64,000 nt of DNA, taken from IMG/VR virus record IMGVR_UViG_3300045256_000188, positions 1 through 64,000 of that record. The stretch is one strand, 5' to 3'. Below the pieces are notes generated by a model. It had not been told where the DNA came from, ran no database searches, and saw nothing but the letters and a program-made list of their open reading frames with translations. Position 1 is the stretch's first letter, and every line of letters begins with the position of its first letter. Below are positions 17,199 through 54,510 of this stretch, in pieces. Source of the stretch: a virus. A program made the position numbers and the translations under genes.

Positions 17199-18845
17199 TT
17201 ACAGGTTGCTGACTGTTACCACGCCATAGTACAGACCACCATCTTCGATCAGCTTCTTCCCATAGCGGGTCATAATACCCTTGTTCGGCGTGAAGGAGTT
17301 CGGGTCGAGTACGGTAGGAGTACTCAGGAGGGGGATATAGGGAGCATAGAAGTAGCCCGCGTCGAGCACCGAGTTCCCCTTGAAGCCCATCAGAATCTTG
17401 CAGTTCGGGAACAGCGGGTCCTTGTAGATCTTCATCTTGCCCTGGATCGAGCCGATGTTCATGATCCCGATGTCCACGCCCTCGGTGGTGAAGGCGTCGG
17501 AGGCACGGAAGTCGTTCAACTGCTCGAACTTGGACGCGATGTCCGCCGACATCACCATCCAGTTGGCCGGGCCGCGGAGGGTGGTCCGGTGGATGATGTT
17601 CGCCACTTCCAGGACCTTGTACATCAGGGCGATGTTGCGGTCCGTGAAGTTGACGCTCGCCCCGGCAGCGGTGGCGAAGTTGTGGTCGGCTCGGATCGCC
17701 GCAGCGATGATGAGGTCGTTGATGATCTCACGATCGATCTCGGCCACCATCTCGTCGGCCATCAGGTCGGTCAGGGTGGACTCAGCGTCGATGTTGTGCA
17801 CCGACTTGAGGTCCTGAGCGGCTTCCAGCGACCAGGAGGTCTTCAGCTTGCGGGTGATCGCAGCGACCGAATCACTGTCGATGCTCAGGGTCACTTCCGG
17901 CTGGAAGGGGTTGGCTTCCAGGTCGTACTCGTAGTTGACGCGGGCCACGGCCCCGACCGGGAAGGACCCAGCGGACAGGGTGACCTGGACGGCACCGGTC
18001 GAGTGGTTGAAGGTAGTCGCACCGGGAGTGCTGACGTCCACCGTCAGGGTGTCGGTGAACTCGGTGCAGTCGCCGACCAACACGACGTCAGGGTTGCCGT
18101 CGCTGTCGAAGCTCACCCGGAGGCACGGCGTGGCGTCGTCGCAGTTCGGGCTGGCGTCGGCGGCGGAGGCGAAAACCTCGACCACGACGGTGCCGGCCAG
18201 GACCGGACGGTGAGCCAGGGTCGCGGACACCACCGAGTTACCGGTGATCGTCGCGTCCTCGCCCCGGACTTCCTGCGAGGAGTAGTATGGGTCGAGAGCC
18301 CAGCCGTTCTGACGAGCGAAGCTCTGGGCGGTGTTCTGCCGCATGATCTGCGTGCCGGCGACCGTCTGGCCCTTCGTCAGAGCGTAGCGGTACCGGATGT
18401 AGAAGATCAGGCTGGCCGGCTGGCTCATCGGCTGGACGCCGACGAGGTTGTCCGCGATCAGCTTCGGGTACGACTTCCGGATCAGCGGCAGGGCGAACCG
18501 GGTGAAGTCGGCGATGTTCGCGGTGGTGGTCTGGTCTTCGAACAGCAGCGACCGCTTCTCCGGGTTCCAGGCGTTGAACTGGTTCTCCAGGATGGAGGCC
18601 ATCAGCCCGAACTTTTGGGGGCCGACTTCGCGGCACTTACTCAGAACCGGCGACCACTTGCGGACGAGTTGGTTCTTCTTCGACTCATGGATGACGGCGG
18701 CCTTGTGCAGGTCCGTCTCCTCGGTCAGCATACGACTGCCACGATTGACCCCTTCAGCGAGGTGCCGGCGAGCAGCGGGGGCAGCGGCCCGTGCTGCGGG
18801 AGCAGCCGGACGAGCAGCGAACCGTTGCGTGCGAGAAGGAAGCAT
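17199..18845 (-). CDS. Major capsid protein, T4 gp23-like
   Basis: KWSPVL, LPLIRK.YPKLIA..LVGVQPM..PA.LIFY, TRKLKTSWSLEAAQDL, EIDREII, GYFYAPYIPL, KGIMTRYG. Confidence 0.95.
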   Translation of the reverse strand: MLPSRTQRFAARPAAPAARAAAPAARRHLAEGVNRGSRMLTEETDLHKAAVIHESKKNQLVRKWSPVLSKCREVGPQKFGLMASILENQFNAWNPEKRSLLFEDQTTTANIADFTRFALPLIRKSYPKLIADNLVGVQPMSQPASLIFYIRYRYALTKGQTVAGTQIMRQNTAQSFARQNGWALDPYYSSQEVRGEDATITGNSVVSATLAHRPVLAGTVVVEVFASAADASPNCDDATPCLRVSFDSDGNPDVVLVGDCTEFTDTLTVDVSTPGATTFNHSTGAVQVTLSAGSFPVGAVARVNYEYDLEANPFQPEVTLSIDSDSVAAITRKLKTSWSLEAAQDLKSVHNIDAESTLTDLMADEMVAEIDREIINDLIIAAAIRADHNFATAAGASVNFTDRNIALMYKVLEVANIIHRTTLRGPANWMVMSADIASKFEQLNDFRASDAFTTEGVDIGIMNIGSIQGKMKIYKDPLFPNCKILMGFKGNSVLDAGYFYAPYIPLLSTPTVLDPNSFTPNKGIMTRYGKKLIEDGGLYYGVVTVSNL

Positions 18846-22586: not shown

Positions 22587-25500
22587 TTACTCGTCAGAGC
22601 CCTTCTTGGCGACTGGAGGGTTGGTGCCGCTGCCGTCATCGACCTTCAGATCCGGCCCGATACCATCGAGCTTGTCATCGGTCTTGCCGGGCACCTTCAC
22701 GTCCGGCATCTTCCTCTTGTTGTCCTTCAGCGGGGCCGTGTACTTCGAAGAGGCCGGGGACGTCATGTCCTTGTCTTCGAAGTGAACCCTGTCATCTTCC
22801 GAGCCAGCGGGAGCGGGCTTGGCGGCCGGCTTCTCGGCCGGGGCCGCGGGCTTGGTAGGAGCGGGTTCCATCGCACCGCCCTGGGCCTCGAAGTCCGGCA
22901 TTGCCTCTTCGCCAGCACCACCGTTCGGGTCGAGGCCATCCTCCCCGCCACCGGTCTGAGCCTGGGCCGGTTCCGAACCCGCGGCAGCCGGGTCAGTCGC
23001 ATCCACCGGAGCCATACCATCGTCGGCACCGGCATCCATCCCGCCACCGGCGGTGTCAAGGCCACCATCACCGCCACCCTGGTCAGCCAGTTCCTGAACT
23101 TCGACGTCCGGGGTTACCTCCACCGACAGCGAGCCGTCCGGCCCGGCGGTGATCTTGGCGACAGCCTCCTCCAGAGCCCGGTCCTCAGCGTCCGAGATCG
23201 GCCGGAGTTGCTCCAGGGAGTTGGCCAGCCAGCCCACGAACCGGGAGCCATCACCCTCGGTCATGTTGGCCGCGGCGAAAGCGTCCTCGACCAGGTCCTG
23301 CGGCACTGGGATCTCGACCGCCCCGTCTTCCGACAGGATGACCGGCTCCAATCCGGTGTCACCACCGTGATCGAAGATGAACTTCACCCCGGCCATCTCA
23401 CCCAAGACAGCATCATCCTGCGAAACCCCCCAGATGATACCCTCGGCGACAGCCCGCTTCACGTTGATGCGGCCCTCGTTCGTGGAGCCACCTGCCCGGC
23501 TGGGCTTCGGAACCTCACGTTCCAGGTTGGACCGGGCGAAGCCGCGGGGCCGACGGACCGGGATCTTGTACTGATCCTCGTCCACGCACCCGTCGTCCTC
23601 GTGCTCGTCGTCCTCGTGCTCGTCGTCCTCGTGCTCGTCGTCCTTCTTCTTGTCCTTCTTGAGCCAGGGCTTCTCCCACTCCTCAGAAAAGGCGTTGACA
23701 ACCTGTTCGAGAGCCTTGGGCATCTTCCCTTCGGGAATCCGCAGGCCAATGGCCTTGATACTGGCCCTGGCCATGTTCTCCAGGTTCTCGCCCAGGGCCT
23801 TGCCGACGAGCTTGTGCTCGGTGGCCAGACGCCGCATGATGCGGATGATCTTGTCGAGGTCGCCCTCGTCGGTGATCACCGGGGCACCGTAATCGGTGAA
23901 CCGCAGCCCTTCGTTGACGATGAATTCGCCCTTCTTCACGGCGTAGGGGTCCGAGTTTTCGGCTAGGAAGTCGCCGTCCCGTTCCAGACCCTGCATCAGC
24001 GGCTGAGCACGGGGAGCCAAAGGAGCCCCGCCTGGGGCCGGAGGAGCCCCGCCGGGAGCCGGAGGAGCCCCGCCGGGAGCGGGAGCACCACCCGGAGGCG
24101 GCGGAGCCCCGCCACCGCCGCCCAGAAGGGCGTCGAGTTCCGGATCGCCCGCACCACCCGCGGCCGGGTCCCCACCCGGCGGCGGAGCACCGCCAGCAGC
24201 GGCTGGATCGCCACCCGCGGCGGATGTACCACCGATCTGGATGAGCGGACTGTTGATGTTGATGACCGGGGCACCCTGCCCGCCGCCACCTATATCGATT
24301 GCCCCGCCACCCGGAGCCATCGGGTCCATGCCTTCCATGTCGCCCGGTATCTGATCGAAGTTGCCCATCGTCTCGGCCGCCCCCAACTCCTCCTGGATGG
24401 TGGCGATGAGGTCTTCGGCCTCGTAGATGGCAGCGTCGTCAAAGTTCCGCTGCTTGAGCCGGTTGATGAGCCCGTTCAGCTTGGACGACAGTTCGTGAGA
24501 CTCCTTGATCTTCGGGGTCTTGTTTCGCAGCACGTCCAGGGTCGTGGCCAGGGCTTCAGCCGCCACTTCCCGGTTACTGATGGCCTCGAAGATGAGGGTT
24601 AGAAACTTGTTGTAGGTCGCCTCAAAGTTCTTGGCGTTCTCCAGTATGTTGACGTTCTCGGCGAGCACCGGGTGTTCGGACTTACGAGCGATGTTCTTCC
24701 ACTCCTCGACGATCTTGGCCTTGTTGACCTTGATGTTGGTGCGGTAGAACAGAGTCGCCGTGTCGTCGCACAGTTGCTGGTTGAAGACGGCCTTGGCTGC
24801 CAGAGCGTTCTCGACCAGGGTCTGCGTCTGGCTGCGGGTCAGGAGAGTGAATTCCTCCATCTCATCCAGGAACCCGGCGAGCCCCTTGACGGCTTCTTCA
24901 ATCTTGTTCTCGGAGATAAGCTTAGCTGCAGTGTAGATCCGGTCCTGGAACCCCTGGCTCCAGTAGGCGTTCTTGGCCGACTCCAGCATTCGCCGGGCGA
25001 CGAGCTTGCGTGCGGCCCACTTGGTCACAGGTAGCTTGACCTGCTCTTCACCGAAGGAGGCAGAGGTGACGTGGCCGTTCTCGACAATCACTCGGTCACG
25101 GAGAGACTCCACGATGGCGCTGACCAACCGGTCTTTCACGTCCTCGCCGATCTCGTCGCCCTTGCTGATGGTGATGCGCCGCAGCACCCCATCCTTGCAC
25201 TTGACCATGCCGGATTCGGGGACGACGCGAGAGGAGAACCGCTGGCTCTTAAGCCGGTTGAAAGCGGTCGCCATCTCCTTCTGGTCATTGGCTTCCAGAG
25301 CGTTGATGAGCCGCAAGGCACTCTCACTGAAGAGTTCCTGCTTCTCACCCTCCACCACCACGACCGGTCGGATGTTGGTGATGTTCACCTTCCCGTGGTC
25401 CCGGCTGTGCTCGGCCACGTAGTAGGTGTGGGTATCCTGGTCCTCAATGAACAGTTCCTTGGCATGAAGGGCAGCTAGACGCCAGTCCTTACCGGCTTGA

Positions 25501-26036: not shown

Positions 26037-29000
26037 TTACAAGCCACTCACCGCCACCGGTAAGTCGGACTCCGTTATCTCTTCCGAGTCAGACTCCTCA
26101 GGCAGATCATGACCCACGGTGATGACGTTGTAGACTTCCCGAATTACCTCATCCCGGATGTCCTTAGGTACTGACCACTCGACGAGAAGCCCAGGGTCCT
26201 CGCTTGGATCGTACAACAACGGAACCTCAAGCCCCTCGGACATCACGATCTGGTTGGGCGTAGGTTTGCCCCTACACAGCCCATCCAACTCCTTGCTCTC
26301 CAGCACGGCCTGGAAACCGCTGGTAAACTCACGGTCCTCCGCAAACAGAGGCTTACCCAACCGATCAGCCCACTTGCGGACCAAGGACATCGCCTTGTTG
26401 CGTTGACCACTCTTCTTATACTCAGCCAGGAGACGCTTATCAGCCTCCCAGTCGAAGCCCGGCAGCTTCGATTCAGGGATAGCGTTGGGGTCGGTCATCG
26501 CCGCAGCTTCCGCCCCCGCCGCAGCAGGGTCAGGAGGAGCCCCACCAGCAGCAGGATCACCACCAGCAGCAGGATCACCACCAGCCGCAGGATCAGCGGG
26601 AACATCCAAGCCACCACCCCCACCACCCCCACCACCCCCACCACCCCCACCAGCAGCATCCCCACCGCCACTAACTGCCTCAGCGGTCATCTCCTTAAGT
26701 TCTTCGATCTCGTCCGGAGACAGATCGGTGAAGTTGGTGACAATCCACTCCTTCGGGAACCAGCCCAGAGCTTGCAGGTCGGTCATCACACCCACCCGCG
26801 TCTGCCACGTCTCGATCCGGTACAATTCCTCCATCGCAGAAGTAGCGGTCAGAGCGATCTCGAATCCCTTCAGATCCTCGACCGGATAACCACGCAAAGC
26901 GAGGTGGATGATGGCCACTTTGGTCAGACCGGTAGCCACCTCCCGTTGAACCCACTGCACCGACTTGGCGAACTCCGAATGCGACTGGCTGAGCGACTTC
27001 TCGCTCGCTTCCCCACTGCCCTCCCCGATACCCACACGAGAGAAGGGGATCTTCATGGGGGCGATCATCTTCTTCTTGAAGTATTCGATATCAGCGATCT
27101 TGTCCACGTTCTCGCCACCCGGCAGCACATCCACGTCCGGACCAGTGCCGTCAGGACGACGCGGCAAGAAGAAATCGTCTTCTTGGATAAGCGGCGAGTA
27201 CCGCTCGTCGAAACTCCCTGTCGAAGGGTTGTAGAACCGCTGCCGCTTGAAGTTGCGGGCGATCATCTGCATATATTCAGGCACTTCCTTCGGCGGAATC
27301 AAGCCAACCGGGATAGTGAACTTCCGCTTTTCAGGCGCGCGGGTATTCGCTTGCACATTACCATTGGAGATGAAATTATGGACCTCATCCTCAACAGTAA
27401 TATCATAGACTAGATCATCACCTACCTCCTCTACTCCCAAGATGGCCTCGGAAGCGTTCGAATGCCTCTCACCAGCCCTCACGATATAATCAGGATCTGG
27501 CAATTGTCTCTTGGTAAAGTAGAGAGACCAACCAACGGTGTCCGGCATAACTCTGCCGGGCTCTATCTCGTGACCGCCACTTCGTTCATGCTTCCGCACT
27601 AGGCCAACATCCCAGCCCAGGCGATGACAAAGTTCCTTGAGGTCCCTCAGCAGCAGCTCGTTGCAGCAATCAACCTCGCAAGACTCGGTATTACCGCCCT
27701 CGAACAGTCGGCGATGGCCGTCAGCATCAATATAGCCGTCAATGAACGCTTCCTGCACCGAGCGAGGCGACTGGAACACCCACGCCGGAATCCGCTTGTT
27801 AGCCGCCCCAGAAATGAAACCATTGTCAAGCATGAAATCATGCAACGGCTTTGAATTAATCGAAAACGAACCGAGCCTCCCACCAGAATCACCGGAAAAA
27901 GTAAGCTGGCCAACAAACGACGCAAACAACTTAGCATAATAATCATTGGTGTGGGCATCAGCACCAATAGCAAACCCAACCTGTCTGGTTACGCTGCCAG
28001 GACGATTCCGATGTGGCCTCGCCGACACGAAGCCGTCACCGACCATGAACCCGAACCACCTAGCAAAGTCTTCGGTAGCCACTTCAGGAATTGTGAAGGC
28101 TCTGCTGGCTGATTCGCGACCGCCAGCGGCCAACGACGACCGATCGAGTGGCACATACTCAGTGTGTTTCACCTGCGGCAGCAAGAAGCGATGATGGCTA
28201 GCGATGCCGTTACGCTTAACGATCAAGTCTTTGACATCAACGTATTCCAAACGAGCTGGGCGGTCCTTGTCTCGTTTATTCGAATAGGACGTCTCGACAA
28301 GGATCGGGTGGGTAGCATTACAAAAGATCTCCCGATGTTGTGAGTAGACGCGATAGATGACGTCCCGCCCATTGCATTGCCAGTCAATTACTTTAGTGAC
28401 TTTGGGCTGGCCGTCCTTGAAGCAGTAAACCTCGTCGCCGACCTTGAGATCCTTAATGGGGGTGTGGCCGGTAGGCGTCCACACCAGAGTATCACCCCTA
28501 AGGCAGATCCTATAGATAAGAGCAGCATCCTCCATGAGACGTAACTGCTTAAACGCCTTGCGGCCACCATCAAGAATTGAGTTGTGAACGACAACACCAT
28601 TGGCGTTGAAATTGTGGAAGCAAGAGGCGACTTGGATGTCACCGACCTCCAGACGACCGGCACTCTCAGCGCGGACGACATCCTCGGCCATATACGAGTT
28701 GGCGTCATCATACTCCGGGTCATGGACTACGATCTTGCTACCTGGAACGACGTATTTAGCCGGCACATACCGGCGGAATAACTTGCCGCCAGCCCCGCCC
28801 ATAACAGCCAAGATCGGGTGATCTTCACTGACCTCTATAGTCCGATACTTCGTGGTTATCCTCAACCCCGGCTTATAACCGCTGCAAACGGTCTGCCGGA
28901 CTGTCGTGGCCCTGGGTGTGAGCCCATCAAACGAGTAAACGACGTCGCCGCGTGTGAGATCCCGTAGTTGCTTGTACCCACCCGGTACCAGGATGGGTGT

Positions 29001-39105: not shown

Positions 39106-39485
39106 TTCAGCGGGAGCGTGCCTGGGGATTGGACGACGGTGGCCTACTGGCGGTGCTGGCTAACGACCTGCACTTGAAAGTATCCTACGGGGTGTTCCAG
39201 TCCAAGCAGTACGTCTTGAGCCGGCTAAACTTAGCCGGCAAGATACTCTACTGCTCCTGTCGTATCAGCACAGAAGGCACCGACGTGATGTTGACCGGTT
39301 CGAACGGTCAGGAAATGGTTGTCAACATCGCCGACCCCAACAGCATCGAGAAGTTGGAGAAAGCCATCAAGGACGACAACTTCATGCTGGTTGCCGGTCC
39401 TAAGACCGAGCAAAAAATCATCGAGATGGAGCGAGATGTGTTCGGCCTAGAAGATTTACTCTTCAAGATGAAGAGTACGATCTAG
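39102..39485 (+). CDS. Hypothetical protein
   Basis: ATGA-coupled to the previous gene. Confidence 0.6.
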   Translation: MIQRERAWGLDDGGLLAVLANDLHLKVSYGVFQSKQYVLSRLNLAGKILYCSCRISTEGTDVMLTGSNGQEMVVNIADPNSIEKLEKAIKDDNFMLVAGPKTEQKIIEMERDVFGLEDLLFKMKSTI

Positions 39486-40474
39486 GACTCGTCCTCGTTG
39501 TCGTCCGCGCTACGTCGCCATCCGGCCCGCTGCCCATCAGCACCACGGTTCAGATTCGAGTCAGTCAGTTCCATACTCCGCAATTTCGTCAACTGGATGA
39601 AGTTGGTGACCGTAGCCCGGGATAGCCCGGTGCGGTCTACCAGCTTACCAATGATCCCATCGTGCGGCCGGTCGTCGTTCTCGGCAATCCAGGCGATTGC
39701 TTCGATGATCTGCAGGTGATCGTTGTGGTACTTCCACAATTCGCGGGCTTCGTTGAGGAACCTCTCCATCACCCCCGACACCGGCCGGCTCTTGGTCCCA
39801 AGGTGGTTAACGTAAGAGCCGGAGTTCTTGCGGTCCCGGCCCTCTTTCTTGATATAGGCCAAGATTACCGTTCGGGCGATCTGGCTCCACATGTTGAAGA
39901 CTTTGGATATGCCGCGGAACAGTACCGTCTCAGAACCACCATATCTGCCCTGCTTGGGCTCGACGCCCGGTGATGCATTCAGGAGGGCTTGGCAATGTGG
40001 GCAGCGACGGCCGCGGTGGAGACTGATAACCTCCTCAATCGTCTTGATACCATACTCCTTGTCGCCCGGTTGGTAGAGCAGGGAGTCGGAGGGGCGTTCT
40101 GGGTTGAAGCAAACCCGACAGTGTGGGCGTGCTCGATACTTGTAGAGGGTCCGCTCGATTTGAACCCAGGCAGTCTGGAGAAGGTCACCGAAAGCGGACT
40201 CTTCTTGGCCTGGGTAGATGGTGTGGAGGCCCTGCTTGCGGATTATTTGGCGGATGAGTTCGGTGGCGTGACTCATGATCTGGTCACGCAGAACTACCTT
40301 CGTGCAACCCGTCCAAATGTATAGCGTTAGCTGCCATTCGACTTCTTCATTAATGAAATACAATTTACGTTGCGGCGTCACCACCGGTGGCGGGCACGGG
40401 GGGACTTGGCTGCTTGGAGGCTGGGACAAGCAGCTTTCGTCGGATTTTGAATCTACTTTTAACGAGTTCTGCAC
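39482..40474 (-). CDS. Late sigma factor-like protein (T4 gp55-like) with zinc-ribbon insert
   Basis: LYFINEEVE; FNMWSQIARTVILAYIKKE resembles gp55 F.YFTQ....AF...IKKE; CRVC..CPHC insert; C-terminal HTH TGLSRATVTNF. Confidence 0.55.
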   Translation of the reverse strand: MQNSLKVDSKSDESCLSQPPSSQVPPCPPPVVTPQRKLYFINEEVEWQLTLYIWTGCTKVVLRDQIMSHATELIRQIIRKQGLHTIYPGQEESAFGDLLQTAWVQIERTLYKYRARPHCRVCFNPERPSDSLLYQPGDKEYGIKTIEEVISLHRGRRCPHCQALLNASPGVEPKQGRYGGSETVLFRGISKVFNMWSQIARTVILAYIKKEGRDRKNSGSYVNHLGTKSRPVSGVMERFLNEARELWKYHNDHLQIIEAIAWIAENDDRPHDGIIGKLVDRTGLSRATVTNFIQLTKLRSMELTDSNLNRGADGQRAGWRRSADDNEDES

Positions 40475-43400
40475 CGTCCACGCTCCCGCCAGGAAATACG
40501 ACCTTGGTAGGGTAGCCGGCTTGGACTATCACCTTGAGCCGGGCCTTCGAGTGATCGTATAGGTACCGGTTGCAGCGGAAGAAGAAGTCGTAAATCTTGC
40601 TTTCGCCGCGACGGTTCCGCCGAAGGGCACGGCCGATCTTTTGAATGAACTCCGATTGGAGCTTACCCCCCGACGCGATTATCAGGTTCTCGCAACCTCC
40701 CTGCAGGTCAAGACCCCGGTTAATAATCTTCCCGCCGATAAGTACATCCAGTTCCCGCCGTTCGAACGCACGCAATGCCTCATCACGTTTACGCTGCGGC
40801 GTCTTCCCGAAGATGAACTTCACCCTGAGTCCGGTCAGATTCACAGCCTCTTCCAACTTGAAACCCAACGCCTCCCGGTCCACCAGCACTAGTGTCCCAT
40901 CCATCGGGTCCCGTTTACACCGCTTGCACAACTTCGCCACGATCGTGTGGAAGCGGACACTCTCAGTAATGTGCTCGTTGTAGGCGATGTCGTAAGCCGA
41001 CGCCTCGTTGATATCCCCATCCAGCCCGCAGGCCAACATGTGGTATTCGCAAGGAATGATCCGGCCCAGCTTCGTCAGGTTCTCCCGCGTCTCCTGGAAA
41101 ATCACACTGCCCAAGTGCTCCTGCACCACCATCGCCTCGACCGGCTTGGCCGGATCGAACGGAGTACCAGAGTTGTGAACCAGCACACCATCAGCATAGA
41201 AGTTTGAGGCCGGATTGACGTCCAGAACGTCATACATTCTGACCTCTTTGCCGGTATCGACGACTTCAATCACCGACGTTTTAGCTTTTCGACAGAGATA
41301 AACGGGAACACCTTTCCATGAGGACAAGCTGTGATCGTCAAAAGAGAACGGGATAAAAGCCGCATTGGGTATCACTACGTCATCACCGTTCGATGCGACG
41401 ACTGTCCTGCAGTATACCAGTGCCCGGTGGACCGCCCAACCTATCAGATCCGGACTTTTGGTAGGCATCTGTGTCCGCAGTGCATCCAGAAATTGCCACA
41501 CATCGTTGAGAGAAGAAGACGGGCTATGGAGGCCACAAAAGAAAAGATGTTGCGAGATCACGGCGTGGAAAACTGGTTTTCCGTCGCAGAGCACCAGAAA
41601 ACCGCGAAGTCCACTAGGCAACGGCTGTACGGCAGTGAGTCGTTCAACAATCAAAAACGGCGTAGGGAGACCTGCCTCGGCAGATACGGCGTTGACCACC
41701 CGATGAAACTGAAGGGCATGGTCCAGAGAGTCCAAAACACTATGATGGAGCGTTACGGCTGTCCCATCATCTTCCAAGCACCCGATAAGATCCAACGACG
41801 ATTGAAGATATTCAAGCAGCGTTTCGGCGGCAACCCCGTCAACGACCCTTCCGTTCGACAGAAAATTAGCCGCACTCTCGCTGAAGGATACAGCAGTGGC
41901 AGACTCAAATTCCCGACCAAATTCAAGACCGGATACTACCTCGACCGGCATGGGCGGTTGTTGTATTACGCCTCGTCTTATGAACTCCTGTTTCTCCAGT
42001 TCCTCGACGGGCACGGCATTGCGTTCACCACGCAAGAACCCAGAATCGGCTATGAATTCGAGGGGAGACGCCAATACGTGATCGATTTCTGTACCGACGA
42101 GTGCTTGATCGAGGTAGGACCGCGTAAACTCAAGGCCCGGCCACGCAATGTGGCCAAGATCCACGCCGGGGTCGCTTTTGCCCAGAAAGTCGGTAAGCGA
42201 TATAAGCTTCTCGACGAGACGATCATCTTGAGTCTGGATAATTTGACCTGGGCTGATATCTTGAACTCTGATGTAGCGTCCCAGATCGTCAGCGATAAGG
42301 TGATCACCTGACGCCCCTAGCCGCGTACCGTCGCTGAATAAGACCTCCCATAACCTCTTAAAGCCGCTGTCAACAACTGTCCCGACCCCAAAAACATCCC
42401 TACCATTCGATCGGCACAGGACGTCAACCACCTGACCGTCGCCGAACGAACTCAACTTTCTACATCCATCTTTAGTGACCACAGACACATCGCCTGGCAA
42501 GCAGAACCCATACCGCCGCCGGCCTCTGAAATAGAAGCGGAACAGGTTCTTCCACGGATCGGACACAGCCTTGTCGCAATTATGAACTAACAAGCCGTTC
42601 GCTTCAAAACAAGCTGGACCGGGGACAGTCAAATCAATCAAGCGTGCGGGATCAGCCAACTCGACGGTTTTAACTATTTCAACCGCATAATCACAGAGAC
42701 TGGTGTCCACTCGTTTAGAAGCAAGGCGATTTTGCAAATTCCGCACATAACCACGCCATAGATCATCACCTCGCTGGCGACGATCCCACGCCGTCTTGCT
42801 GTCTATGCCAGCGAACGCCGCCACTTTGGCGTCACTAACACCGAATAAATTTTTGGCAGCAGCATAATTGGCCGGTACCACCGCGATCAAATTGTCAATT
42901 GATTTTTGCCATTTAACCAACCTTATAAGACTAATTTTGTTACGATTGCCAGGAGACACACCGGTAGTGTTGGTCCCTAGGATTCTAGCCAGTTTGACTG
43001 GGGGCAGACCAGCTTCCCGCCAGTGAGCCAACCATGGTTGCGGATCAATTCGTCGTTCACTGTCCACAACCGAAGAGAGCACGGGTTTGCTCTGTTTTCG
43101 GCTGAAACCAAAACCAACCAGTCGATGCCACTTCCTAAAATTTTCGCCAGATACGGCAACCCGCCACAGTTTAGCGTGTTGTGCACGATCACGCTTATTA
43201 CTAATGAACACACTAGAGCCAATTCCTAAATAAGCCATGAGTTTCTGAGCGAAATTCATCAATGCCCAATCGATTGAGTCACAAGTCACGGAGCTTGGAT
43301 AAGACGACCCTTTTGCATCAAATAATCCACGCAATAAGCTAGCCGCAGCGTCGGTGCTGGGAACCACAAATCGTGGATCGATCGACCCCATCTTACGTCC

Positions 43401-44714
43401 GGGTTTGAACCCAAGCTGTTTCAACCATGCTGTTAAGGCTGACGACTTGATTATAAACACAAAATCGCCACGGCGATTGAAACCAGATTTAAATGACCCA
43501 GACCAGGCGACAGCCATCGCCACACCAACAGCATGCCAGTCGTCAACATCTTTCCGAACTGCGAAGCGTACTCGCTCATTATCCAAAAAATGGCCATCTC
43601 CGATAAACAGACCGAGGTGGTACCAAGAGTCTATGATTGTGGTGGTAGCAATCTCCGGGCGAGGGGCCAACAGCAAGTCGCCGGGGACGAGATCGCAAGC
43701 ATGACGATAGTCGCATCGGCCATTAACTAAAACAGCACATGGATGGTTGTGCGAAGTCCGCAAAATTATACCAGTCGTGGTTGTAACGTTGACAGTAGCT
43801 TCTACCTTTTCGGACCACCCACTAATTCGATAATACTTATCATTGACGCGAGCCATTACAACTTGACCAGTCTGCAAACGTTCTACCACCACTGCGGCTC
43901 GTTCGAGACCTCCGTCGGTGACTATTACAGTGTCTTCGTGAACGCACTCGTCCACAATAATCATTTCGGCCTTGCGGACGTACTCGATCAGCACCTTAGC
44001 ATTCTTGCGACGGGTCTTGAACGCCTTGAACTTCTTATCCCACTGTTCCATCCGTTTCTGGAACGAGATATCGCCTTCCCCCATCTTCTGGGTAGGGACC
44101 TCCGGTGGCTTGGTAGGCAATGTAAGTGACTGGATAGAACCGATGACCACCATCTGGCCATTGGGCCGCTTCCCAGCGTAGAACATGCCGACTTCTTCGG
44201 CCACATCCCGCAGTTCCAGCCGCTCCTTGAGTTGCTTTACTACAATCACTTGGTCAGCGAGGATGATCGTCGGGCAAGGAATAGCCTTGCAAGTGCCGGC
44301 GATGAGTTCGCCCTTACCGCCGCCGGTTGGTATGTCGATAATACCGCACTCGACCCTGACGGTCTTTCGGATGCAGTCGATCTGGTACTGCTCCAGCTTG
44401 ATGCCGGGCAGGAAATTCTCGTCGATGGTATCAGGATCGACTGTTTGGTAATTCCAAGCTGGGCGAAGATCGCGAACTGAGAGGGGTAGGTTGTGCTTGT
44501 TGCAAACACCACGGAGCATCGACAGGAATGGGCGGGCCATTCGCCGCCGGCCGCGATTGTACTTGCGGAACACCCCATCCCAATTCGCCATCTGGGTTGG
44601 GTCAACATAACGGCCCGGTCGACTAACACTGAACTCTTCCCAAAGGATGTTCTCCTCGGCGTCCGTGATGTTGTCGAAGTAAATCCACTGGTTGTCGTTG
44701 AGTATGGCGATCAC
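40365..44714 (-). CDS. SF2 DNA helicase (UvsW-like) with two inteins
   Basis: YQ, PTGGGKG, IVDE|CD, GF|SGTP, RGLD, QKIGRALR. Confidence 0.9.
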   Translation of the reverse strand: MIAILNDNQWIYFDNITDAEENILWEEFSVSRPGRYVDPTQMANWDGVFRKYNRGRRRMARPFLSMLRGVCNKHNLPLSVRDLRPAWNYQTVDPDTIDENFLPGIKLEQYQIDCIRKTVRVECGIIDIPTGGGKGELIAGTCKAIPCPTIILADQVIVVKQLKERLELRDVAEEVGMFYAGKRPNGQMVVIGSIQSLTLPTKPPEVPTQKMGEGDISFQKRMEQWDKKFKAFKTRRKNAKVLIEYVRKAEMIIVDECVHEDTVIVTDGGLERAAVVVERLQTGQVVMARVNDKYYRISGWSEKVEATVNVTTTTGIILRTSHNHPCAVLVNGRCDYRHACDLVPGDLLLAPRPEIATTTIIDSWYHLGLFIGDGHFLDNERVRFAVRKDVDDWHAVGVAMAVAWSGSFKSGFNRRGDFVFIIKSSALTAWLKQLGFKPGRKMGSIDPRFVVPSTDAAASLLRGLFDAKGSSYPSSVTCDSIDWALMNFAQKLMAYLGIGSSVFISNKRDRAQHAKLWRVAVSGENFRKWHRLVGFGFSRKQSKPVLSSVVDSERRIDPQPWLAHWREAGLPPVKLARILGTNTTGVSPGNRNKISLIRLVKWQKSIDNLIAVVPANYAAAKNLFGVSDAKVAAFAGIDSKTAWDRRQRGDDLWRGYVRNLQNRLASKRVDTSLCDYAVEIVKTVELADPARLIDLTVPGPACFEANGLLVHNCDKAVSDPWKNLFRFYFRGRRRYGFCLPGDVSVVTKDGCRKLSSFGDGQVVDVLCRSNGRDVFGVGTVVDSGFKRLWEVLFSDGTRLGASGDHLIADDLGRYIRVQDISPGQIIQTQDDRLVEKLISLTDFLGKSDPGVDLGHIAWPGLEFTRSYLDQALVGTEIDHVLASPLEFIADSGFLRGERNAVPVEELEKQEFIRRGVIQQPPMPVEVVSGLEFGREFESATAVSFSESAANFLSNGRVVDGVAAETLLEYLQSSLDLIGCLEDDGTAVTLHHSVLDSLDHALQFHRVVNAVSAEAGLPTPFLIVERLTAVQPLPSGLRGFLVLCDGKPVFHAVISQHLFFCGLHSPSSSLNDVWQFLDALRTQMPTKSPDLIGWAVHRALVYCRTVVASNGDDVVIPNAAFIPFSFDDHSLSSWKGVPVYLCRKAKTSVIEVVDTGKEVRMYDVLDVNPASNFYADGVLVHNSGTPFDPAKPVEAMVVQEHLGSVIFQETRENLTKLGRIIPCEYHMLACGLDGDINEASAYDIAYNEHITESVRFHTIVAKLCKRCKRDPMDGTLVLVDREALGFKLEEAVNLTGLRVKFIFGKTPQRKRDEALRAFERRELDVLIGGKIINRGLDLQGGCENLIIASGGKLQSEFIQKIGRALRRNRRGESKIYDFFFRCNRYLYDHSKARLKVIVQAGYPTKVVFPGGSVDGAELVKSRFKIRRKLLVPASKQPSPPVPATGGDAAT
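41172..42503 (-). mobile_element. Helicase intein 2 (interior is the antisense of an endonuclease gene)
   Basis: F|CLPGDV..ASGDH...MYDVLDV..NFYADGVLVHN|S; no nuclease motifs in the intein frame. Confidence 0.88.
41331..42311 (+). CDS. Endonuclease (Zn finger + ERYG repeats + TnsA-like PD-(D/E)XK domain) nested antisense in helicase intein 2
   Basis: CDDC..CPQC; TCLGRYGVDHP, TMMERYGCP-type repeats; YYASSYELLFLQFLD..EP.IGY..YVIDF..LIEVG; GAGGA RBS before GTG. Confidence 0.8.
   Translation: MIVKRERDKSRIGYHYVITVRCDDCPAVYQCPVDRPTYQIRTFGRHLCPQCIQKLPHIVERRRRAMEATKEKMLRDHGVENWFSVAEHQKTAKSTRQRLYGSESFNNQKRRRETCLGRYGVDHPMKLKGMVQRVQNTMMERYGCPIIFQAPDKIQRRLKIFKQRFGGNPVNDPSVRQKISRTLAEGYSSGRLKFPTKFKTGYYLDRHGRLLYYASSYELLFLQFLDGHGIAFTTQEPRIGYEFEGRRQYVIDFCTDECLIEVGPRKLKARPRNVAKIHAGVAFAQKVGKRYKLLDETIILSLDNLTWADILNSDVASQIVSDKVIT
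42579..43946 (-). mobile_element. Helicase intein 1 (LAGLIDADG, in Walker B)
   Basis: E|CVHEDT..LGLFIGDG..LIDLTV..FEANGLLVHN|C. Confidence 0.9.
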
Positions 44715-50900: not shown

Positions 50901-53857
50901 ATGTCCACCGAATCGAGGGTCTGGCCGATCTTCCGGTCCAGGTGGGCTCGAATGAGGACGTGCAGTTCGATCAGGATACTAGGGCCGCTGGCCTTGCCGC
51001 CAAAGCCCTTGATGTCCGACCCTTCCTTTCGAATCTGGGAATAGTCGAACTCGACGATGCCTTCCTTGTAGGCCACGGTGTAGGAGCGGATCAGGTGGCG
51101 TACCGAGTCAACCCAGCCCTCGCGGGAGTCTGGGATGACAAACGGCCGAATGATGCTTGGATTGGGCTGGTAGATGTTGATCTTGCCAGCACCCTTGGTA
51201 TCAAACCCGACGCCCACGCCGAGCATCGACATGTCCATGAGGAAGCAGAACGGCTCAGCCGGGTCTGACTCCGACAGATCGGAGGTCGAGACGAAGCCGC
51301 AGTTCCGGGAATGGATACCGTCAGCGAGAGCAAATGAGTGGTAATCTGGAACCTGTGGGCAGAAGACTTCTTCGTACCGGTCGGTTGGCTCCACTGACTT
51401 GACGCGCCAGTGATATACAGGCCGCGTCCGGTGACTGGACCAGGACTCGAATCGACGGCGATGTTCTTTCAGCAAGAAGAACTCAGGCCGTAAATGAGAC
51501 CCCATAAGCCCAATCTCATAACTGTCGAAGGTCTTAACTTCCCCATCATGCTTGACAACTTGATGGCTCTTGATGATAGAATATGTGCCAATACCAAGAA
51601 CGGCACACACGTCACGCACGACTAGAAGATTGGACTTCTTACTGCTGCTAATCCTGATACAGTTGCCTTTCTTGTTGATCTTCCCGTCAGCAGCGAAGTA
51701 ACCGGCGAGCCAGCCATAGAGATAACTGCTCGACTCACGCAGAGACGGTGGTTCTTTGAAGAATCGCGGAAGATCCGCGACTCGCACCGCCCCACCCTCA
51801 CACTTGTCGGGATGATCGGTAGTCGGGCAAGAGTTGAAGTACTTGAGCAGTTCCCTATCCTTGTGGCCACACAGATAAATAGATGCTCCGCTGTGACCAG
51901 CTGCCGGGGTATTGCCGTCACCATACGTGATCCCGTGGGCGATGCCAAAGTTACTTGGCCGAAGTTCACCACCGATGCCACGTCCAAACAGGTATCGCAG
52001 GCAATCAACGCCGGGTTTGAGGTCCTTAGTAGTGCAGATGCGATAAGGAGCCGTTCTCCGCCTCTTGGCTGTGATGACAGCCACACTCACACCATCGGAC
52101 TGACTGGCATGGTTTGCCGGTGCGAACCGGCGATCACGTGCGTACCACTCATGATCAGCGGTAGCGTAGATGATCTTCTCTGAACCAGAACGCTCAAGAG
52201 TGATTTTCCATAGTTGTTGCACCCCAAACGATTTGATAGGTGCTTCAACCCAGCGTCCACCCTCGGTCAGTAGCGTCTGGACGGTGCCAGCCAATTCACC
52301 TATGGGCTTGATGCCGTCGCGAGTAACAATCTCCTCTTCGGCCGGGAGACAGTTCCCGGTCAAGATGTTGTCTTCGAGGACGAAACATCCCTTGCCAGGA
52401 ACTGTGGCACAATATACTTCCTCTTCCCGATCAGTTTCTTCGACCGATTCCACGATCCATTTTTCGCGATGGCTACCGCCGCGTTCCTTCCAGGCCAGGA
52501 ATCGCTGGCGGTGATGAGACAGCAGGAAGAAGTCTTCGGTCAGGTGCTCCAATTTCAGGTACACCCGGTATCCAACGAATTCGCGGCGGTCACCGCGGTG
52601 GTTCACCACATGCATGCCCTGTTGTACTAGACCGGTGCCGATACCGAGAACAGCACAGACCTCACGTACCAGTTCCATGTTCTCCTGTTTCGAGGAATGG
52701 ATAAACGCCGTACATGCCTTCTTATTGATAGAGCCGTCAGCAGCGAAATATCCGGCCAGCCAACCGTACAAGTACGCCTTACACTCACGCAGATCCGGCG
52801 GCGACTTATAGTGGCGTGGCAGATCAGCCACCCGGATCGCGCCCTCCTTGCCCTTGCGTGGGTCGAAACTCGTCGGCGATTTCGAGAAGAACTCTAGTAA
52901 TTCAAAGTTCTTCTTGCCGCAGAGATAGAGATAGCTGCCGGTGCTCTTATCCTTGTGACCGAGCGTCCCATCGCCAAAGCAGATGCCATGGGCGATGCCG
53001 AACTGCGACGGTCGAACGCTCTGAACGCCTTGCCCATAGACCATCTGAAGCTCGTGCCCGATCTCCAGATTGCGTGTAAGCGTTTCCTGGAACGGCCCCT
53101 TACGCCGGATGTGACGAAGCCGTTCGTCCCGGTCCACTCCGGCCGGGATTCGATTCAGTGCTGGTCTAGCGAACCAGCGGTGATCAGGGGTGGCGTAGAT
53201 GACCTTGCGAGTCCTGAACCGCTTCAGGACTATTTTCATCAGTTTCTGTCTGCCGAAACTGCGGATTGGTGCATCTACCCACTCACCGTTGCTAGTCATC
53301 AACATCTGAGTGGTACCGGCCAGCTCCCCAATGGGCTTGATCCCATCTCTGGTGATGATCCGTGTGTTGAATTCCAGACAGTTGTTCAAGGCGGCGGAGC
53401 CCCGTTCCCACATGAACTTGGTGCCCATCATCCAGAGCCCGCGGCCCGGCGGCAGGAACTTGAAGTCCCACATCCGCTGAAACATCTCCTGGGCACTGGC
53501 CTGGGCTTTTTCAGCGGTCCAGGGGATGTGCAGGTGATTGCAGTGTCGCCGCTGGATCTCGTAGCAGCCTTCAACGACCCGCTGGACGACGTCGAGGAAC
53601 GTCTCCTTGCTGCCGTCCTCCTTGAGGCGGGAGTAGGTGCGGTAGAAGACGAATTCACCGAGTCCGCTGAAGCCGAATTTGGGCTTCTTCCCCTTGTACC
53701 CCTTGAGGAATGCCGGATCGAGGGTGAAATGAGCTTCTCCCTGTCCGCCGCCGAGATACTTCTCGGCGATGTTATAGATCTCGGCTTGCGGAGACAGGGG
53801 GATAGCGGGGCCATTCCCCACGGCCGCTGGCCGCAGGTTCAAGAGGATAACAGACAC
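44936..53857 (-). CDS. nrdJ: Class II (adenosylcobalamin) ribonucleotide reductase, RTPR-type, with six inteins
   Basis: RTYSR, PPGRGLW, LNN|CGF, GVGVGFD, VAGNVRR|TA, RWASNNS, NGEPG, GANP|CMEQSLESYEL|CNLVE, NRRIGLS, VKPSG|TVS, C-terminal FCDNDKC; start set at GTG behind GGAGAG. Confidence 0.93.
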   Translation of the reverse strand: MSVILLNLRPAAVGNGPAIPLSPQAEIYNIAEKYLGGGQGEAHFTLDPAFLKGYKGKKPKFGFSGLGEFVFYRTYSRLKEDGSKETFLDVVQRVVEGCYEIQRRHCNHLHIPWTAEKAQASAQEMFQRMWDFKFLPPGRGLWMMGTKFMWERGSAALNNCLEFNTRIITRDGIKPIGELAGTTQMLMTSNGEWVDAPIRSFGRQKLMKIVLKRFRTRKVIYATPDHRWFARPALNRIPAGVDRDERLRHIRRKGPFQETLTRNLEIGHELQMVYGQGVQSVRPSQFGIAHGICFGDGTLGHKDKSTGSYLYLCGKKNFELLEFFSKSPTSFDPRKGKEGAIRVADLPRHYKSPPDLRECKAYLYGWLAGYFAADGSINKKACTAFIHSSKQENMELVREVCAVLGIGTGLVQQGMHVVNHRGDRREFVGYRVYLKLEHLTEDFFLLSHHRQRFLAWKERGGSHREKWIVESVEETDREEEVYCATVPGKGCFVLEDNILTGNCLPAEEEIVTRDGIKPIGELAGTVQTLLTEGGRWVEAPIKSFGVQQLWKITLERSGSEKIIYATADHEWYARDRRFAPANHASQSDGVSVAVITAKRRRTAPYRICTTKDLKPGVDCLRYLFGRGIGGELRPSNFGIAHGITYGDGNTPAAGHSGASIYLCGHKDRELLKYFNSCPTTDHPDKCEGGAVRVADLPRFFKEPPSLRESSSYLYGWLAGYFAADGKINKKGNCIRISSSKKSNLLVVRDVCAVLGIGTYSIIKSHQVVKHDGEVKTFDSYEIGLMGSHLRPEFFLLKEHRRRFESWSSHRTRPVYHWRVKSVEPTDRYEEVFCPQVPDYHSFALADGIHSRNCGFVSTSDLSESDPAEPFCFLMDMSMLGVGVGFDTKGAGKINIYQPNPSIIRPFVIPDSREGWVDSVRHLIRSYTVAYKEGIVEFDYSQIRKEGSDIKGFGGKASGPSILIELHVLIRAHLDRKIGQTLDSVDITDLMNYIGRCVVAGNVRRCLPKGTLVHLKRGLVPIEQVQVGDLVLTADGYYPVAENVAQGVQRVVTINSLMGPFRCTDRHRIAVMSGLDQYEWKRAHELRAGDRMVFVDAVIPGTDTVLPGYSDLSGRGSTLIVPGLTTDVAWFLGAVHGGGYVYPGRAHKGRKYHGASVTIPVNRDEYHDGITAKVNAGFAAFGFDAPGEQRSQDNCRKIRVISKRLAHYLYTHVKQARKPLDVPACIRMGIPEIRSAYLAGLLDSDGSTKNRPTTLVTSVYRDFLRQVQAVYSSLGIPTKLRLRKKADAAGQAKWEISLLGEYAIAGFRQHVQPHAVKQLREMGRASGHDFGYPTEMVSKSVMYADYGRTWTPQQEQMTYSSATTLGLKTKGLIPVAVTSVVDEGVTVETYDLSVPDRSEFVAEGRLVHNTAEIAFGDADDEAYCSMKNPTKTLLPQDMDAWFEVTGKIYAAKRNSATKDDFAGKDIPDERLLPAIQTWNALNHHRWASNNSIFAKLGMDYRPVGQQIGVNGEPGIIWLNNVRDYGRMVDGLKPGVDGRVMGANPCFAGAMRLLTENGYRTMRELWVSGGFQEYSGQPSVDKHGTLRVVNHAGVVTATNVYRTSERAEIFRVMLSNGQYIDATADHVFVVLDDDMVEHRVRLCELVPGHRLPLHFVPAFGQFSDPHYAELAGWVIGDGSLSQQRDGQVTAFVACHQDDIEEVLPVLRRNLLDVYHRHNQSSDQSPDFDGSERRQEHFSHRQKSIRSNVLGRLLNSDGVVPGDKHRVPTSIWGGTRETVAAFLRGFFSADGGVQISNYKLSISIRAGQKSKSFLNECQLLLRQFGINSSVLRRQAVTTRLMNDGNGGHELIISGRTNVQLFMNQIGFIQASKTEKATSWLADHHGSRNSLPKLFAMVMSVERVGEEETFCLTEPGHNKVVVNGIIIGQCMEQSLESYELCVSGDTKLQLRDGIRRIDAVVGKIVEVWNGDSWSKVTPRVTGSDRELYRVHFSDGSYLDATGNHGWSVRPVGKRVYRRVGTLQLQPGDRVLGFSLGRVAGNKVSNAFEMGYATGDGDLVNRPRYTRPMAVACGQKAKLKTLDMGGRWYKPQNKDGYGDPYNRINLRDCMTSDQLRELRDKNAGLPAWVMAFDRESILEFIAGWIESDGCVCKQANTHSYRIYGLEAKIRDAQLLLRRAGINHASVNFYHPAGQVTNKGVRQNDLWYIQIPSFECGEIPTRVKRATKIGSRIKPNPRYSNRGIDVAQKQYVVAVEKLPGLHTTYCFDEPDNHMGVFGNVITYQCNLVETFPSNHDDANDYMRTLKFAYLYAKTVTLLPTHNRRTNQVTLRNRRIGLSQSGIVEAFAKFGRRTVLKDFCDAGYNEIRRWDQIYSEWMCVPKSIKVTSVKPSGCRPWHALTTTSAGLLTLEELFEMSGHQDGERWCDMTKEVIAVQGDGIDSSRSMMAGVATAIGDRITKTYDNGLSDVVKVKLNYNFMLESTPNHQWFVVSRYDRGKKRKLSQVNDWKRADELLPGDIVQLTPGIYSCRNHAALCKLSSRHVSMRGPVAAIEQPTHMNPDLAWLLGYMWGDGSQSFLKFRMRYTDQNLSNLHKAQRVILEQFGVETKITRASQGRDAFVLEVGSKLLWHWLLINDCLKIKSNADLIPKCIRSSSYEDILAFLAGLCDSDGCIGRRASDQYPIISMSGDLFARHVQDVALAVGLVFSRSLNAKGRNHQGVRRMWSLSGMKHTVDDRFALFAKHCNKCVEDAVADLPWTHQVGKKNRLFGKVVAVTQGERQRTYDVEVDNSHWYYAGAVKSHNTVSLVVGVSPGIHHPEAGTYWRLVRVAKDSVLVKILREAGFKVEPVLSDPDRTVVVYFGVKGESGVRPVGEVSIWEQMQNAVDYQRYWADNQVSCTVKFKPHEAADIARVLEAFEDQLKGISFLPHVDHGYAQAPYIPCEAAEVEEYNSKLGNADYSEYLYEAVGSQFCDNDKCAMPT
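45473..46699 (-). mobile_element. RNR intein 6 (LAGLIDADG)
   Basis: G|CRPWHA..TPNH..TYDVEV..KSHN|T. Confidence 0.9.
47024..48049 (-). mobile_element. RNR intein 5 (LAGLIDADG, C-terminal Gln)
   Basis: L|CVSGDT..TGNH..TYCFDEP..VITYQ|C. Confidence 0.88.
48083..49228 (-). mobile_element. RNR intein 4 (LAGLIDADG, C-terminal Gln)
   Basis: P|CFAGAM..TADH..TFCLTEP..IIIGQ|C. Confidence 0.88.
49634..50845 (-). mobile_element. RNR intein 3 (LAGLIDADG)
   Basis: R|CLPKGT..TDRH..LAGLLDSDG..TYDLSV..LVHN|T. Confidence 0.9.
51302..52351 (-). mobile_element. RNR intein 2 (LAGLIDADG; paralogue of intein 1)
   Basis: CLPAEE..TADHEW..VFCPQV..GIHSRN|CGF. Confidence 0.9.
52352..53380 (-). mobile_element. RNR intein 1 (LAGLIDADG; tandem with intein 2)
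   Basis: N|CLEFNT..TPDHRW..VYCATV..NILTGN|C. Confidence 0.9.
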
Positions 53858-54510
53858 GGTTCTCTCCAGTCTTGCTCGAAGATGTCGCGGGCTTGGTTGA
53901 GGTTTCCCTGATCCTTCAGGAATTCCTGCCACAGGATGTACAATTCGGTCTGCCTGGGTAACAATCCCCGTTCGTCTGGGTAGTCGCGGTTGAGTCGAGC
54001 CAGAACTTTGGAGCAGGACCGCGACAGTGCGAGATAGAGCGGTGTGATACGGGACGCCTGGAACCACATAGTCAGGTTACAAAACCCGTCAGGGTCTGCC
54101 CGACTTGATAGCACTTCCACGGCGTTGCCATCGCCAATTTTCTTGCTGAGCCAGGACTTGATGTGCCGGAGGGAATCGGTCGTTCGCGTGTTGTTGTTGG
54201 ACTCTTCTTGCAGTTCCTCGTAGCACAGATCCAGCATGTTGTGCTGGTGCAGTACTGCGAGTCCCTTGTTCAGCAGTCCCTTCTCTTTCGCGAGCCGCAC
54301 GGCGATGTCGATGAACTTCTTCGCCGCTTCATCCGGTAGTTCCCACTCCTCAAACTTTTTAGCGATGGCCGTCGCATACCGCCACTGGTAAGTCTTGGAC
54401 GGGTCCGTACCGGCCGGGAGGCTCAGCCTACGGCCTTGCCGTAGATAGGCTTCTGAGCACCAGGACCAGACGTCGAGCACCCGGTTGTCGTCCACTTGCG
54501 ACCTCTTCAT
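53839..54510 (-). CDS. Hypothetical protein
   Basis: Protein-like composition from MKRSQVDD; overlaps the RNR start. Confidence 0.65.
   Translation of the reverse strand: MKRSQVDDNRVLDVWSWCSEAYLRQGRRLSLPAGTDPSKTYQWRYATAIAKKFEEWELPDEAAKKFIDIAVRLAKEKGLLNKGLAVLHQHNMLDLCYEELQEESNNNTRTTDSLRHIKSWLSKKIGDGNAVEVLSSRADPDGFCNLTMWFQASRITPLYLALSRSCSKVLARLNRDYPDERGLLPRQTELYILWQEFLKDQGNLNQARDIFEQDWREPCLLSS

Follow-up and report, generated by a model that had tools for sequence, protein, structure and literature searches.

A homing endonuclease gene (HEG) placed backwards inside an intein appears to be a layout that has already been described. An anti-sense homing-endonuclease open reading frame (ORF) in the DnaX intein of Synechocystis was reportedly noted by Gorbalenya in 1998, and anti-sense VSR-like endonucleases in full actinobacteriophage inteins are said to be the subject of a 2025 preprint by Gosselin, Arsenault and Gogarten. 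As attributed to both papers, the intein is contiguous, the endonuclease is encoded by a separate gene on the opposite strand, and the host frame stays open. In this study, we analyzed a locus with the same three properties: the second of two inteins (intein 2) in a superfamily 2 (SF2) helicase gene that lies in a stretch of 64,000 nucleotides (hereafter, the window), the first 64 kb of the 83,425-base virus record IMGVR_UViG_3300045256_000188. Here, however, the enzyme encoded by the nested gene combines DUF7487 repeats with a TnsA/T7-endonuclease-I-like nuclease domain, and does not appear to be of the LAGLIDADG, VSR-like or HNH type. The host gene also differs, in that it is an SF2 helicase with the insertion site RYGF|SGTP and with relatives in phages of 350-400 kb, and about 30 codons at this locus are constrained in both frames. 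Our literature search for an antisense endonuclease gene in an intein, which did not cover the spelling "anti-sense", returned no paper.

Other known systems resemble intein 2 in part. In fractured genes, as set out in Dassa 2009 (PMC2677866), a free-standing endonuclease gene within an intein shares the strand of the host gene, which a stop and a restart break apart. There too a free-standing-type endonuclease gene has invaded the intein of a phage DNA-metabolism gene; the nested gene of the window, in contrast, is antisense and leaves the host frame unbroken. Some nuclear group I introns carry a homing-endonuclease gene in antisense orientation (PMC9548176), which likewise places a mobility gene opposite a self-splicing element. 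Such introns, however, are removed as RNA and impose no frame constraint, whereas intein 2 would be removed as protein, and because of this an antisense gene in it must leave the host frame open. Canonical LAGLIDADG inteins, for example intein 1 of the same helicase, have the same HINT splicing ends and carry an endonuclease in the slot between the lobes. In those elements intein and endonuclease form one polypeptide, whereas the middle of intein 2 reads as a shadow without a family match. Finally, DUF7487 repeats are shared with F-LimVIII (31.9% identity over residues 108-200 by tblastn), which is flanked on either side by tail genes, both of them encoded on the other strand. Unlike the nested gene, F-LimVIII is free-standing; it is 596 aa long, and 18 of its 596 codons are TTA, CTA or TCA, such that its antisense frame is closed.

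We consider it highly probable that intein 2 is a contiguous class-1 intein with a shadow interior, and that a separate antisense DUF7487/PD-(D/E)XK gene, putatively serving homing, occupies the same triplets.

A nuclease-type gene antisense to intein 2

A first-pass annotation of the window had pointed to a plus-strand ORF within intein 2 that lies in the same codon register as the intein, with both frames open, and that is preceded by a GAGGA ribosome-binding site and ends in a TGA opposite the Ser codon of the intein motif SGDH. When coordinates were checked, each of these elements was found as described (Table 1). The nested gene and the intein frame share the same triplets, the low base of which falls at window positions divisible by 3, and the stop codon (TGA 42309-42311) is complementary to the codon for Ser802 of the helicase. 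Codon-usage likelihood favoured the plus strand within 41331-42308 only, and favoured the minus strand on either side. Moreover, Shine-Dalgarno-like motifs at similar spacing were found in two related loci that are described below, GGTGAG in L011 and GAGGAAG in L016, and the start is conserved in all three copies.

Table 1. Coordinates of the helicase locus and its nested gene (window positions).
Feature	Position	Strand	Basis or remark
Nested antisense gene, 326 aa, GTG start, putative homing endonuclease	41331..42311	+	zinc ribbon, DUF7487 repeats, PD-(D/E)XK domain
Shine-Dalgarno-like GAGGA, 6 nt before GTG	41320..41324	+	similar motifs in L011 and L016
Zinc-ribbon-like CxxC...C...CxxC (C22, C25, C31, C48, C51)	41394..41483	+	invariant in window and L011
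DUF7487 helical repeats, aa ~63-187	41517..41891	+	Pfam PF24308; modelled helices at residues 56-185
PD-(D/E)XK nuclease domain, aa 196-318; E218, D252, E261; Gly263 in place of Lys, then RKLK	41916..42284	+	alignment, structure comparison
Stretch constrained in both frames: intein block B to N4 (DHLIA..GYIR..D..PGQ..DD) opposite last ~30 codons and stop of nested gene	42219..42311	.	both frames conserved
Intein 2, 444 aa, helicase aa 738-1181, site RYGF|SGTP	41172..42503	-	CLPGDV...VHN|SGTP
Part of intein 2 N-lobe outside nested gene, 64 codons	42312..42503	-	intein frame conserved; opposite frame with stops
Intein 2 C-lobe, 53 codons, blocks F and G	41172..41330	-	intein frame conserved; plus strand must carry translation start signals of nested gene
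Helicase precursor gene, SF2-type, 1449 aa, two inteins	40365..44714	-	ORF; Pfam ResIII, Helicase_C, Intein_splicing, LAGLIDADG_3
Intein 1, 456 aa, canonical in-frame LAGLIDADG, at VDE|CDK	42579..43946	-	LAGLIDADG_3 at helicase aa 457-534

In family and structure searches the plus-strand ORF matched a family and a fold, and in family searches the intein-frame interior matched no Pfam or PHROG family. The RYG-type repeats seen in the first-pass annotation correspond to Pfam DUF7487 (PF24308), for which the cut-off is 27 bits; the window copy scored 74.2 bits (E 1.9e-20), and the nested ORFs of L011 and L016 scored 69.8 and 60.0 bits, respectively. The CxxC..CxxC finger was also sustained, its five Cys residues being invariant in two sequences, and a three-stranded sheet was modelled at residues 2-32. 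In addition, the protein matched PHROG families whose annotation is "homing endonuclease" or "endonuclease", and its C-terminal domain was common to 9 of the 151 family proteins examined. When a library of 1.84 billion representatives was searched in full with HMMER, 6435 proteins scored E<=1e-3; identity to the best of them was only 33%, and none of the nested copies had a counterpart above 50% identity in that library. The family is thus large, yet the nested gene itself goes uncalled in public protein sets. Free-standing members of the family to which the nested protein belongs carry the annotation of putative homing endonuclease. These comparisons indicate that the plus ORF is a genuine gene of nuclease type.

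The structure of the nested protein was then predicted with AlphaFold (AF2) from a 17-sequence alignment, yielding a predicted local distance difference test (pLDDT) score of 84.5. Residues 196-318 of the model were most similar to TnsA (1t0f; Z 10.1, root-mean-square deviation 2.5 over 104 residues), followed by Vsr (Z 8.2) and I-Bth0305I (Z 7.6), and Foldseek ranked TnsA first with a probability of 1.00. A profile built from the alignment matched T7 endonuclease I (E 1.6e-6); the matches in the PDB were to T7 endonuclease I and not to Vsr. No Vsr-type Pfam family was matched at E<=0.1, and the likeness seen to Vsr and I-Bth0305I was one of fold only. The TnsA-like PD-(D/E)XK domain proposed at first pass was thereby recovered, and the C-terminal domain is predicted to adopt a TnsA/T7-endonuclease-I-like PD-(D/E)XK fold. 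E218, D252 and E261 were invariant in all 17 sequences.

On the minus strand, the splicing ends of intein 2 had been described as normal, and the key residues bear this out. Intein 2 contains C1, His68 in block B, Asp425 in block F, the terminal pair His443-Asn444, and Ser at position +1; we take the block B His, the block F Asp and the C-terminal His-Asn to be motifs of a class-1 HINT intein. C1 and the +1 Ser were found in the window, L011, L016 and a protein-only relative, P0153, and H68, D425, H443 and N444 were invariant in 3/3 sequences (window, L011 and L016). The block B Thr is replaced by Ser in the window and L011. The whole helicase passed the Pfam Intein_splicing profile at 36.8 bits, chiefly owing to intein 1. 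Taken together, the sequence features suggest that intein 2 is one contiguous class-1 intein, with an N-lobe of ~95 aa, a C-lobe of ~53 aa and ~296 codons between them, and that the sense translation of this ~296-codon interior is a non-functional shadow.

Related helicase loci were collected in a first round (12 loci) and in a wider scan (77 loci, 76 of them assessable). L011 carries an intein of 443 aa at the same helicase site with an antisense ORF of 327 aa; both inteins were missing in the other 11 of the 12 first-round loci. L016, which was located by degenerate patterns, has both inteins and an antisense ORF of 322 aa. The RYGF|SGTP-type site was empty in 74 of the 76 assessable loci (...RRYGF|SGTP..., no insert), and the two occupied sites were those on the contigs of L011 and L016. 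The fourth carrier, P0153, is a contiguous protein of 989 aa that is 58% identical across the intein frame; its DNA was not found in the genome contigs or viral contigs searched. At 101 of 135 changed interior residues of P0153, the HEG residue of the window can still be encoded on the opposite strand, compared with a shuffle mean of 24.9, and 0/1000 shuffles reached 101. Further nested copies were sought by several routes. A word-index search gave one distant protein only, 27 phage records were matched by tblastn, each of them partially and below 60% identity, and blastn of the helicase against phages gave no match. Alignment-driven scans of metagenome and viral contigs recovered the contig of L011 alone, and a pattern search of genome contigs recovered none.

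Because the window derives from a metagenome-derived virus record, an assembly artefact with an inverted segment, which had been named at first pass as a case that would undo the observation, was also considered. The same layout, however, was present in two other assemblies that are just ~60% identical, making three independent assemblies in all. Contigs of other sequencing runs also spanned 41171/41172, 41331 and 42503/42504 with no joints, although these runs come from a sample that may be the source and so are not independent. We therefore give an artefact almost no credence. Where DNA contigs of other runs cover the locus, no intein-less allele was seen. As a separate observation, contigs of low depth, assembled from other runs of what is probably the source sample, differed from the nested gene by a few G>A and C>T changes (window 41461-41522), one of which would turn Cys48 to Tyr; at a depth below 5 these are possibly errors, and they were not used.

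Selection on the two overlapping frames

To determine which frame is under selection, identity, silent changes, and nonsynonymous and synonymous divergence (dN and dS, with ratio omega) were compared among the three DNA copies. Over the 296 interior codons, the HEG frame showed identities of 0.60-0.63 with 99-101 silent changes, a dN of 0.26-0.32 and saturated dS; the intein frame of the same codons showed identities of 0.33-0.42, 17-39 silent changes and an omega of 0.78-1.21. In the two flanks it was the intein frame that was conserved, with 12-19 silent changes and a dS that was saturated or at least 2, and the HEG frame there contained stops, with 0-5 silent changes and an omega of 0.6-1.2. 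Substitutions clustered at third positions of the plus frame. These comparisons indicate that selection acts on the nuclease frame in the interior and on the intein frame at the ends. The first-pass view that the interior reads as an antisense shadow is consistent with its intein-frame omega and with its lack of a family match.

The first-pass reading needs correction in that the nested gene is not confined cleanly to a loop of the intein. Its last ~30 codons run opposite intein block B to N4, a stretch that is conserved in both frames: among the three copies, identity was 0.50-0.57 in the HEG frame and 0.43-0.53 in the intein frame, omega was below 1 in both, and the fewest changes fell at second codon positions. 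This ~30-codon stretch is thus genuinely constrained in both frames, and it would be a small natural example of a segment in which each strand codes for a functional protein.

On the opposite strand of this register, the codons TTA, CTA and TCA create stops in the helicase frame. None of the 114 Leu and Ser codons in the three nested genes was TTA, CTA or TCA. From the codon usage of each host, 4.7, 9.6 and 8.5 such codons were expected in the window, L011 and L016, respectively, with probabilities of observing none of 6.5e-3, 1.2e-5 and 5.5e-5; because the copies share ancestry, these three probabilities are not independent. In the window genome the three codons make up 1.6% of all codons, and the probability that the register would be open over 327 codons is ~0.006. 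L011 and L016 are AT-richer, and their openness is far beyond chance; in other genes on the L011 and L016 contigs, the longest antisense-register open runs were 193 and 100 codons, respectively. Moreover, at 24 of the 36 columns in which at least two copies share Leu or Ser, the synonymous codon differs. This synonymous turnover argues for continuing selection on an open host frame, although a comparison of n=3 sequences is no proof. It would appear that the nested gene has been kept free of TTA, CTA and TCA, and that the helicase frame stays open as a result. The earlier suggestion that a junk translation is tolerated because it is spliced out was therefore supported as regards shadow evolution, but mere tolerance does not describe the locus, since these codons have been kept out. 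The comparison of dN/dS and of these codons across homologues, which had been proposed at first pass, accordingly favoured the nested gene on both counts.

The same data bear on whether the helicase might instead be a fractured gene, in which a split intein would ligate two separately made polypeptides and the open frame would be incidental. Free-standing endonuclease genes in inteins are known to split them (PMC2677866), but the fractured genes described there consist of three same-strand coding regions with a stop and a restart. By comparison, no intein-frame stop was present in 3/3 loci, P0153 is also contiguous, and the avoidance of TTA, CTA and TCA far exceeds host usage in L011 and L016. 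We regard a fractured gene as very improbable.

Catalytic residues, mobility and competing explanations

Several observations weigh against the interpretation of intein 2 as a functional intein that harbours an active antisense homing endonuclease. Intein 2 on its own scored only 21.6 bits against the Intein_splicing cut-off of 35.8. The structure model of the intein frame was poor throughout, including the C-lobe (pLDDT 33.3), although with an alignment of just 3 sequences it says little. Scans for sigma-70-type promoters upstream of the nested gene in the window, L011 and L016 gave nothing above chance. The long genes of the window contain 14 other antisense-register open runs of 185-549 codons (for example 17199-18845, 22587-23963, 26175-27410 and 52901-53908). 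As had been noticed at first pass, the E-x-K motif is deviant; its Lys is Gly in 3/3 nested copies, which makes cleavage activity uncertain, and Lys is retained in the same alignment column in 12 of 14 distant relatives (the exceptions are P0065 and P0110). Against the Tn7_TnsA-like_N cut-off of 26.5 bits, the nested proteins of L011 and L016 reached 17.2 and 13.2 bits and that of the window gave no match at E<=0.1, whereas the relatives P0114 (29.8 bits) and P0074 (34.1 bits) exceeded it. Finally, the DNA-level instances number just 3 and are of shared ancestry.

The frequent open runs confirm the first-pass caution that this register is often open in GC-rich genes, and in a genome rich in GC at third codon positions (GC3-rich) the openness of the antisense register alone is weak evidence for a gene. 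They also lend some support to reading the plus ORF as a chance shadow opposite an in-frame endonuclease domain that has degenerated. However, none of the 14 control runs had a Pfam match at E<=0.01, in contrast to the DUF7487 match of the nested gene, and the plus ORF yielded a confident structure model, whereas the intein-frame interior matched nothing. The concentration of substitutions at third positions of the plus frame refutes a chance shadow, and we consider this explanation extremely unlikely.

The catalytic deviations bear on a different alternative, in which a real and conserved nested gene has lost its cutting function. Its product would then be a nickase, or a DNA-binding or otherwise domesticated protein, with the spread of the intein now limited to vertical descent or general recombination. 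The substitution of Lys and the low Tn7_TnsA-like_N scores of the nested copies both fit such a protein. On the other hand, the three acidic residues are invariant, purifying selection extends over the whole nuclease domain, and the RKLK that directly follows the substituted position could supply the catalytic Lys. Moreover, on a helicase tree of 63 rows (from which identical rows, L092 and short rows were dropped), the three carriers require three changes, and each adjoins intein-less relatives. Carriers scattered in this way, with the site empty in the relatives closest to them, are compatible with continuing mobility. We therefore judge the loss of cutting to be unlikely.

If the nested gene does serve homing, the following sequence of events can be envisaged. 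The helicase precursor would be translated straight through the shadow, and intein 2 would splice the shadow out. The nested gene would be expressed separately, from its own antisense transcript, and its product would cut, or at least mark, intein-less helicase alleles near RYGF|SGTP. Repair would then copy the intein and the nested gene together. How the arrangement arose had also been addressed at first pass, with the proposal that a nuclease gene entered a mini-intein backwards. The backwards gene is real, but the mini-intein ancestor found no support, as neither a mini-intein nor an in-frame-endonuclease form of intein 2 was present in any of the 76 related loci.

Although the layout has apparently been described before, the DUF7487/TnsA-T7-endonuclease-I-like nuclease type seems to be new for it, as do the SF2 helicase site and a documented two-frame overlap. 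Tentatively, and with slightly less than even confidence, we propose that a nuclease family with a zinc ribbon, DUF7487 repeats and a TnsA/T7-endonuclease-I-like domain with a displaced Lys adopted the backwards-in-intein layout independently, such that the layout would be convergent across endonuclease families. Under this proposal, the ~30 overlapping codons would serve both proteins, as block B-N4 strands of the intein and as C-terminal helices of the nuclease, and the antisense transcript could tie nuclease to helicase expression.

The locus suggests that a mobile intein can acquire a mobility enzyme without in-frame fusion. The nuclease gene uses the one antisense register in which synonymous codons can avoid every host-frame stop. 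Gene callers would overlook nested genes of this kind, and this class of homing endonuclease would be invisible in protein databases, given the lack of any library counterpart above 50% identity to a nested copy. DUF7487 also gains a concrete and testable role, with the RYGF|SGTP junction of the helicase as the predicted target site.

Neighbouring inteins and genomic context

CheckV estimated the completeness of the source virus record at 23%. Because contigs bearing related helicases reach 354-408 kb, the record probably covers only part of the genome of a very large phage.

Intein-less homologues of the helicase are ~535-560 aa in length. The intein 1 site was empty in 11 of 12 first-round relatives. 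Intein 1 was present in the window and L016 and absent from L011 and P0153, in which the site reads VDE|SDK. As L011 and P0153 nevertheless carry intein 2, the two helicase inteins appear, from their distribution, to have been gained or lost independently of each other. The helicases of L105, L107, L124 and L126 have an empty RYGF|SGTP-type site, but 745-1115 aa precede it, which suggests that their long upstream parts are inteins elsewhere in the same helicase.

The gene downstream of the helicase in L011 (6650-8977, plus strand) encodes 775 aa with an intein-like insert (...TAW|C...SHN|TQIERTLYKF...). Its homologue in the window (39482-40474, minus strand, 330 aa) is without this insert and reads ...TAWVQIERTLYKY..., and the comparison indicates that the gene neighbouring the helicase is likewise intein-polymorphic. 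The last ~110 bases of the helicase gene (40365-40474) overlap the called start region of this next minus-strand ORF, the true start of which probably lies further downstream. The window also contains a ribonucleotide-reductase ORF of 3043 aa with several inteins.

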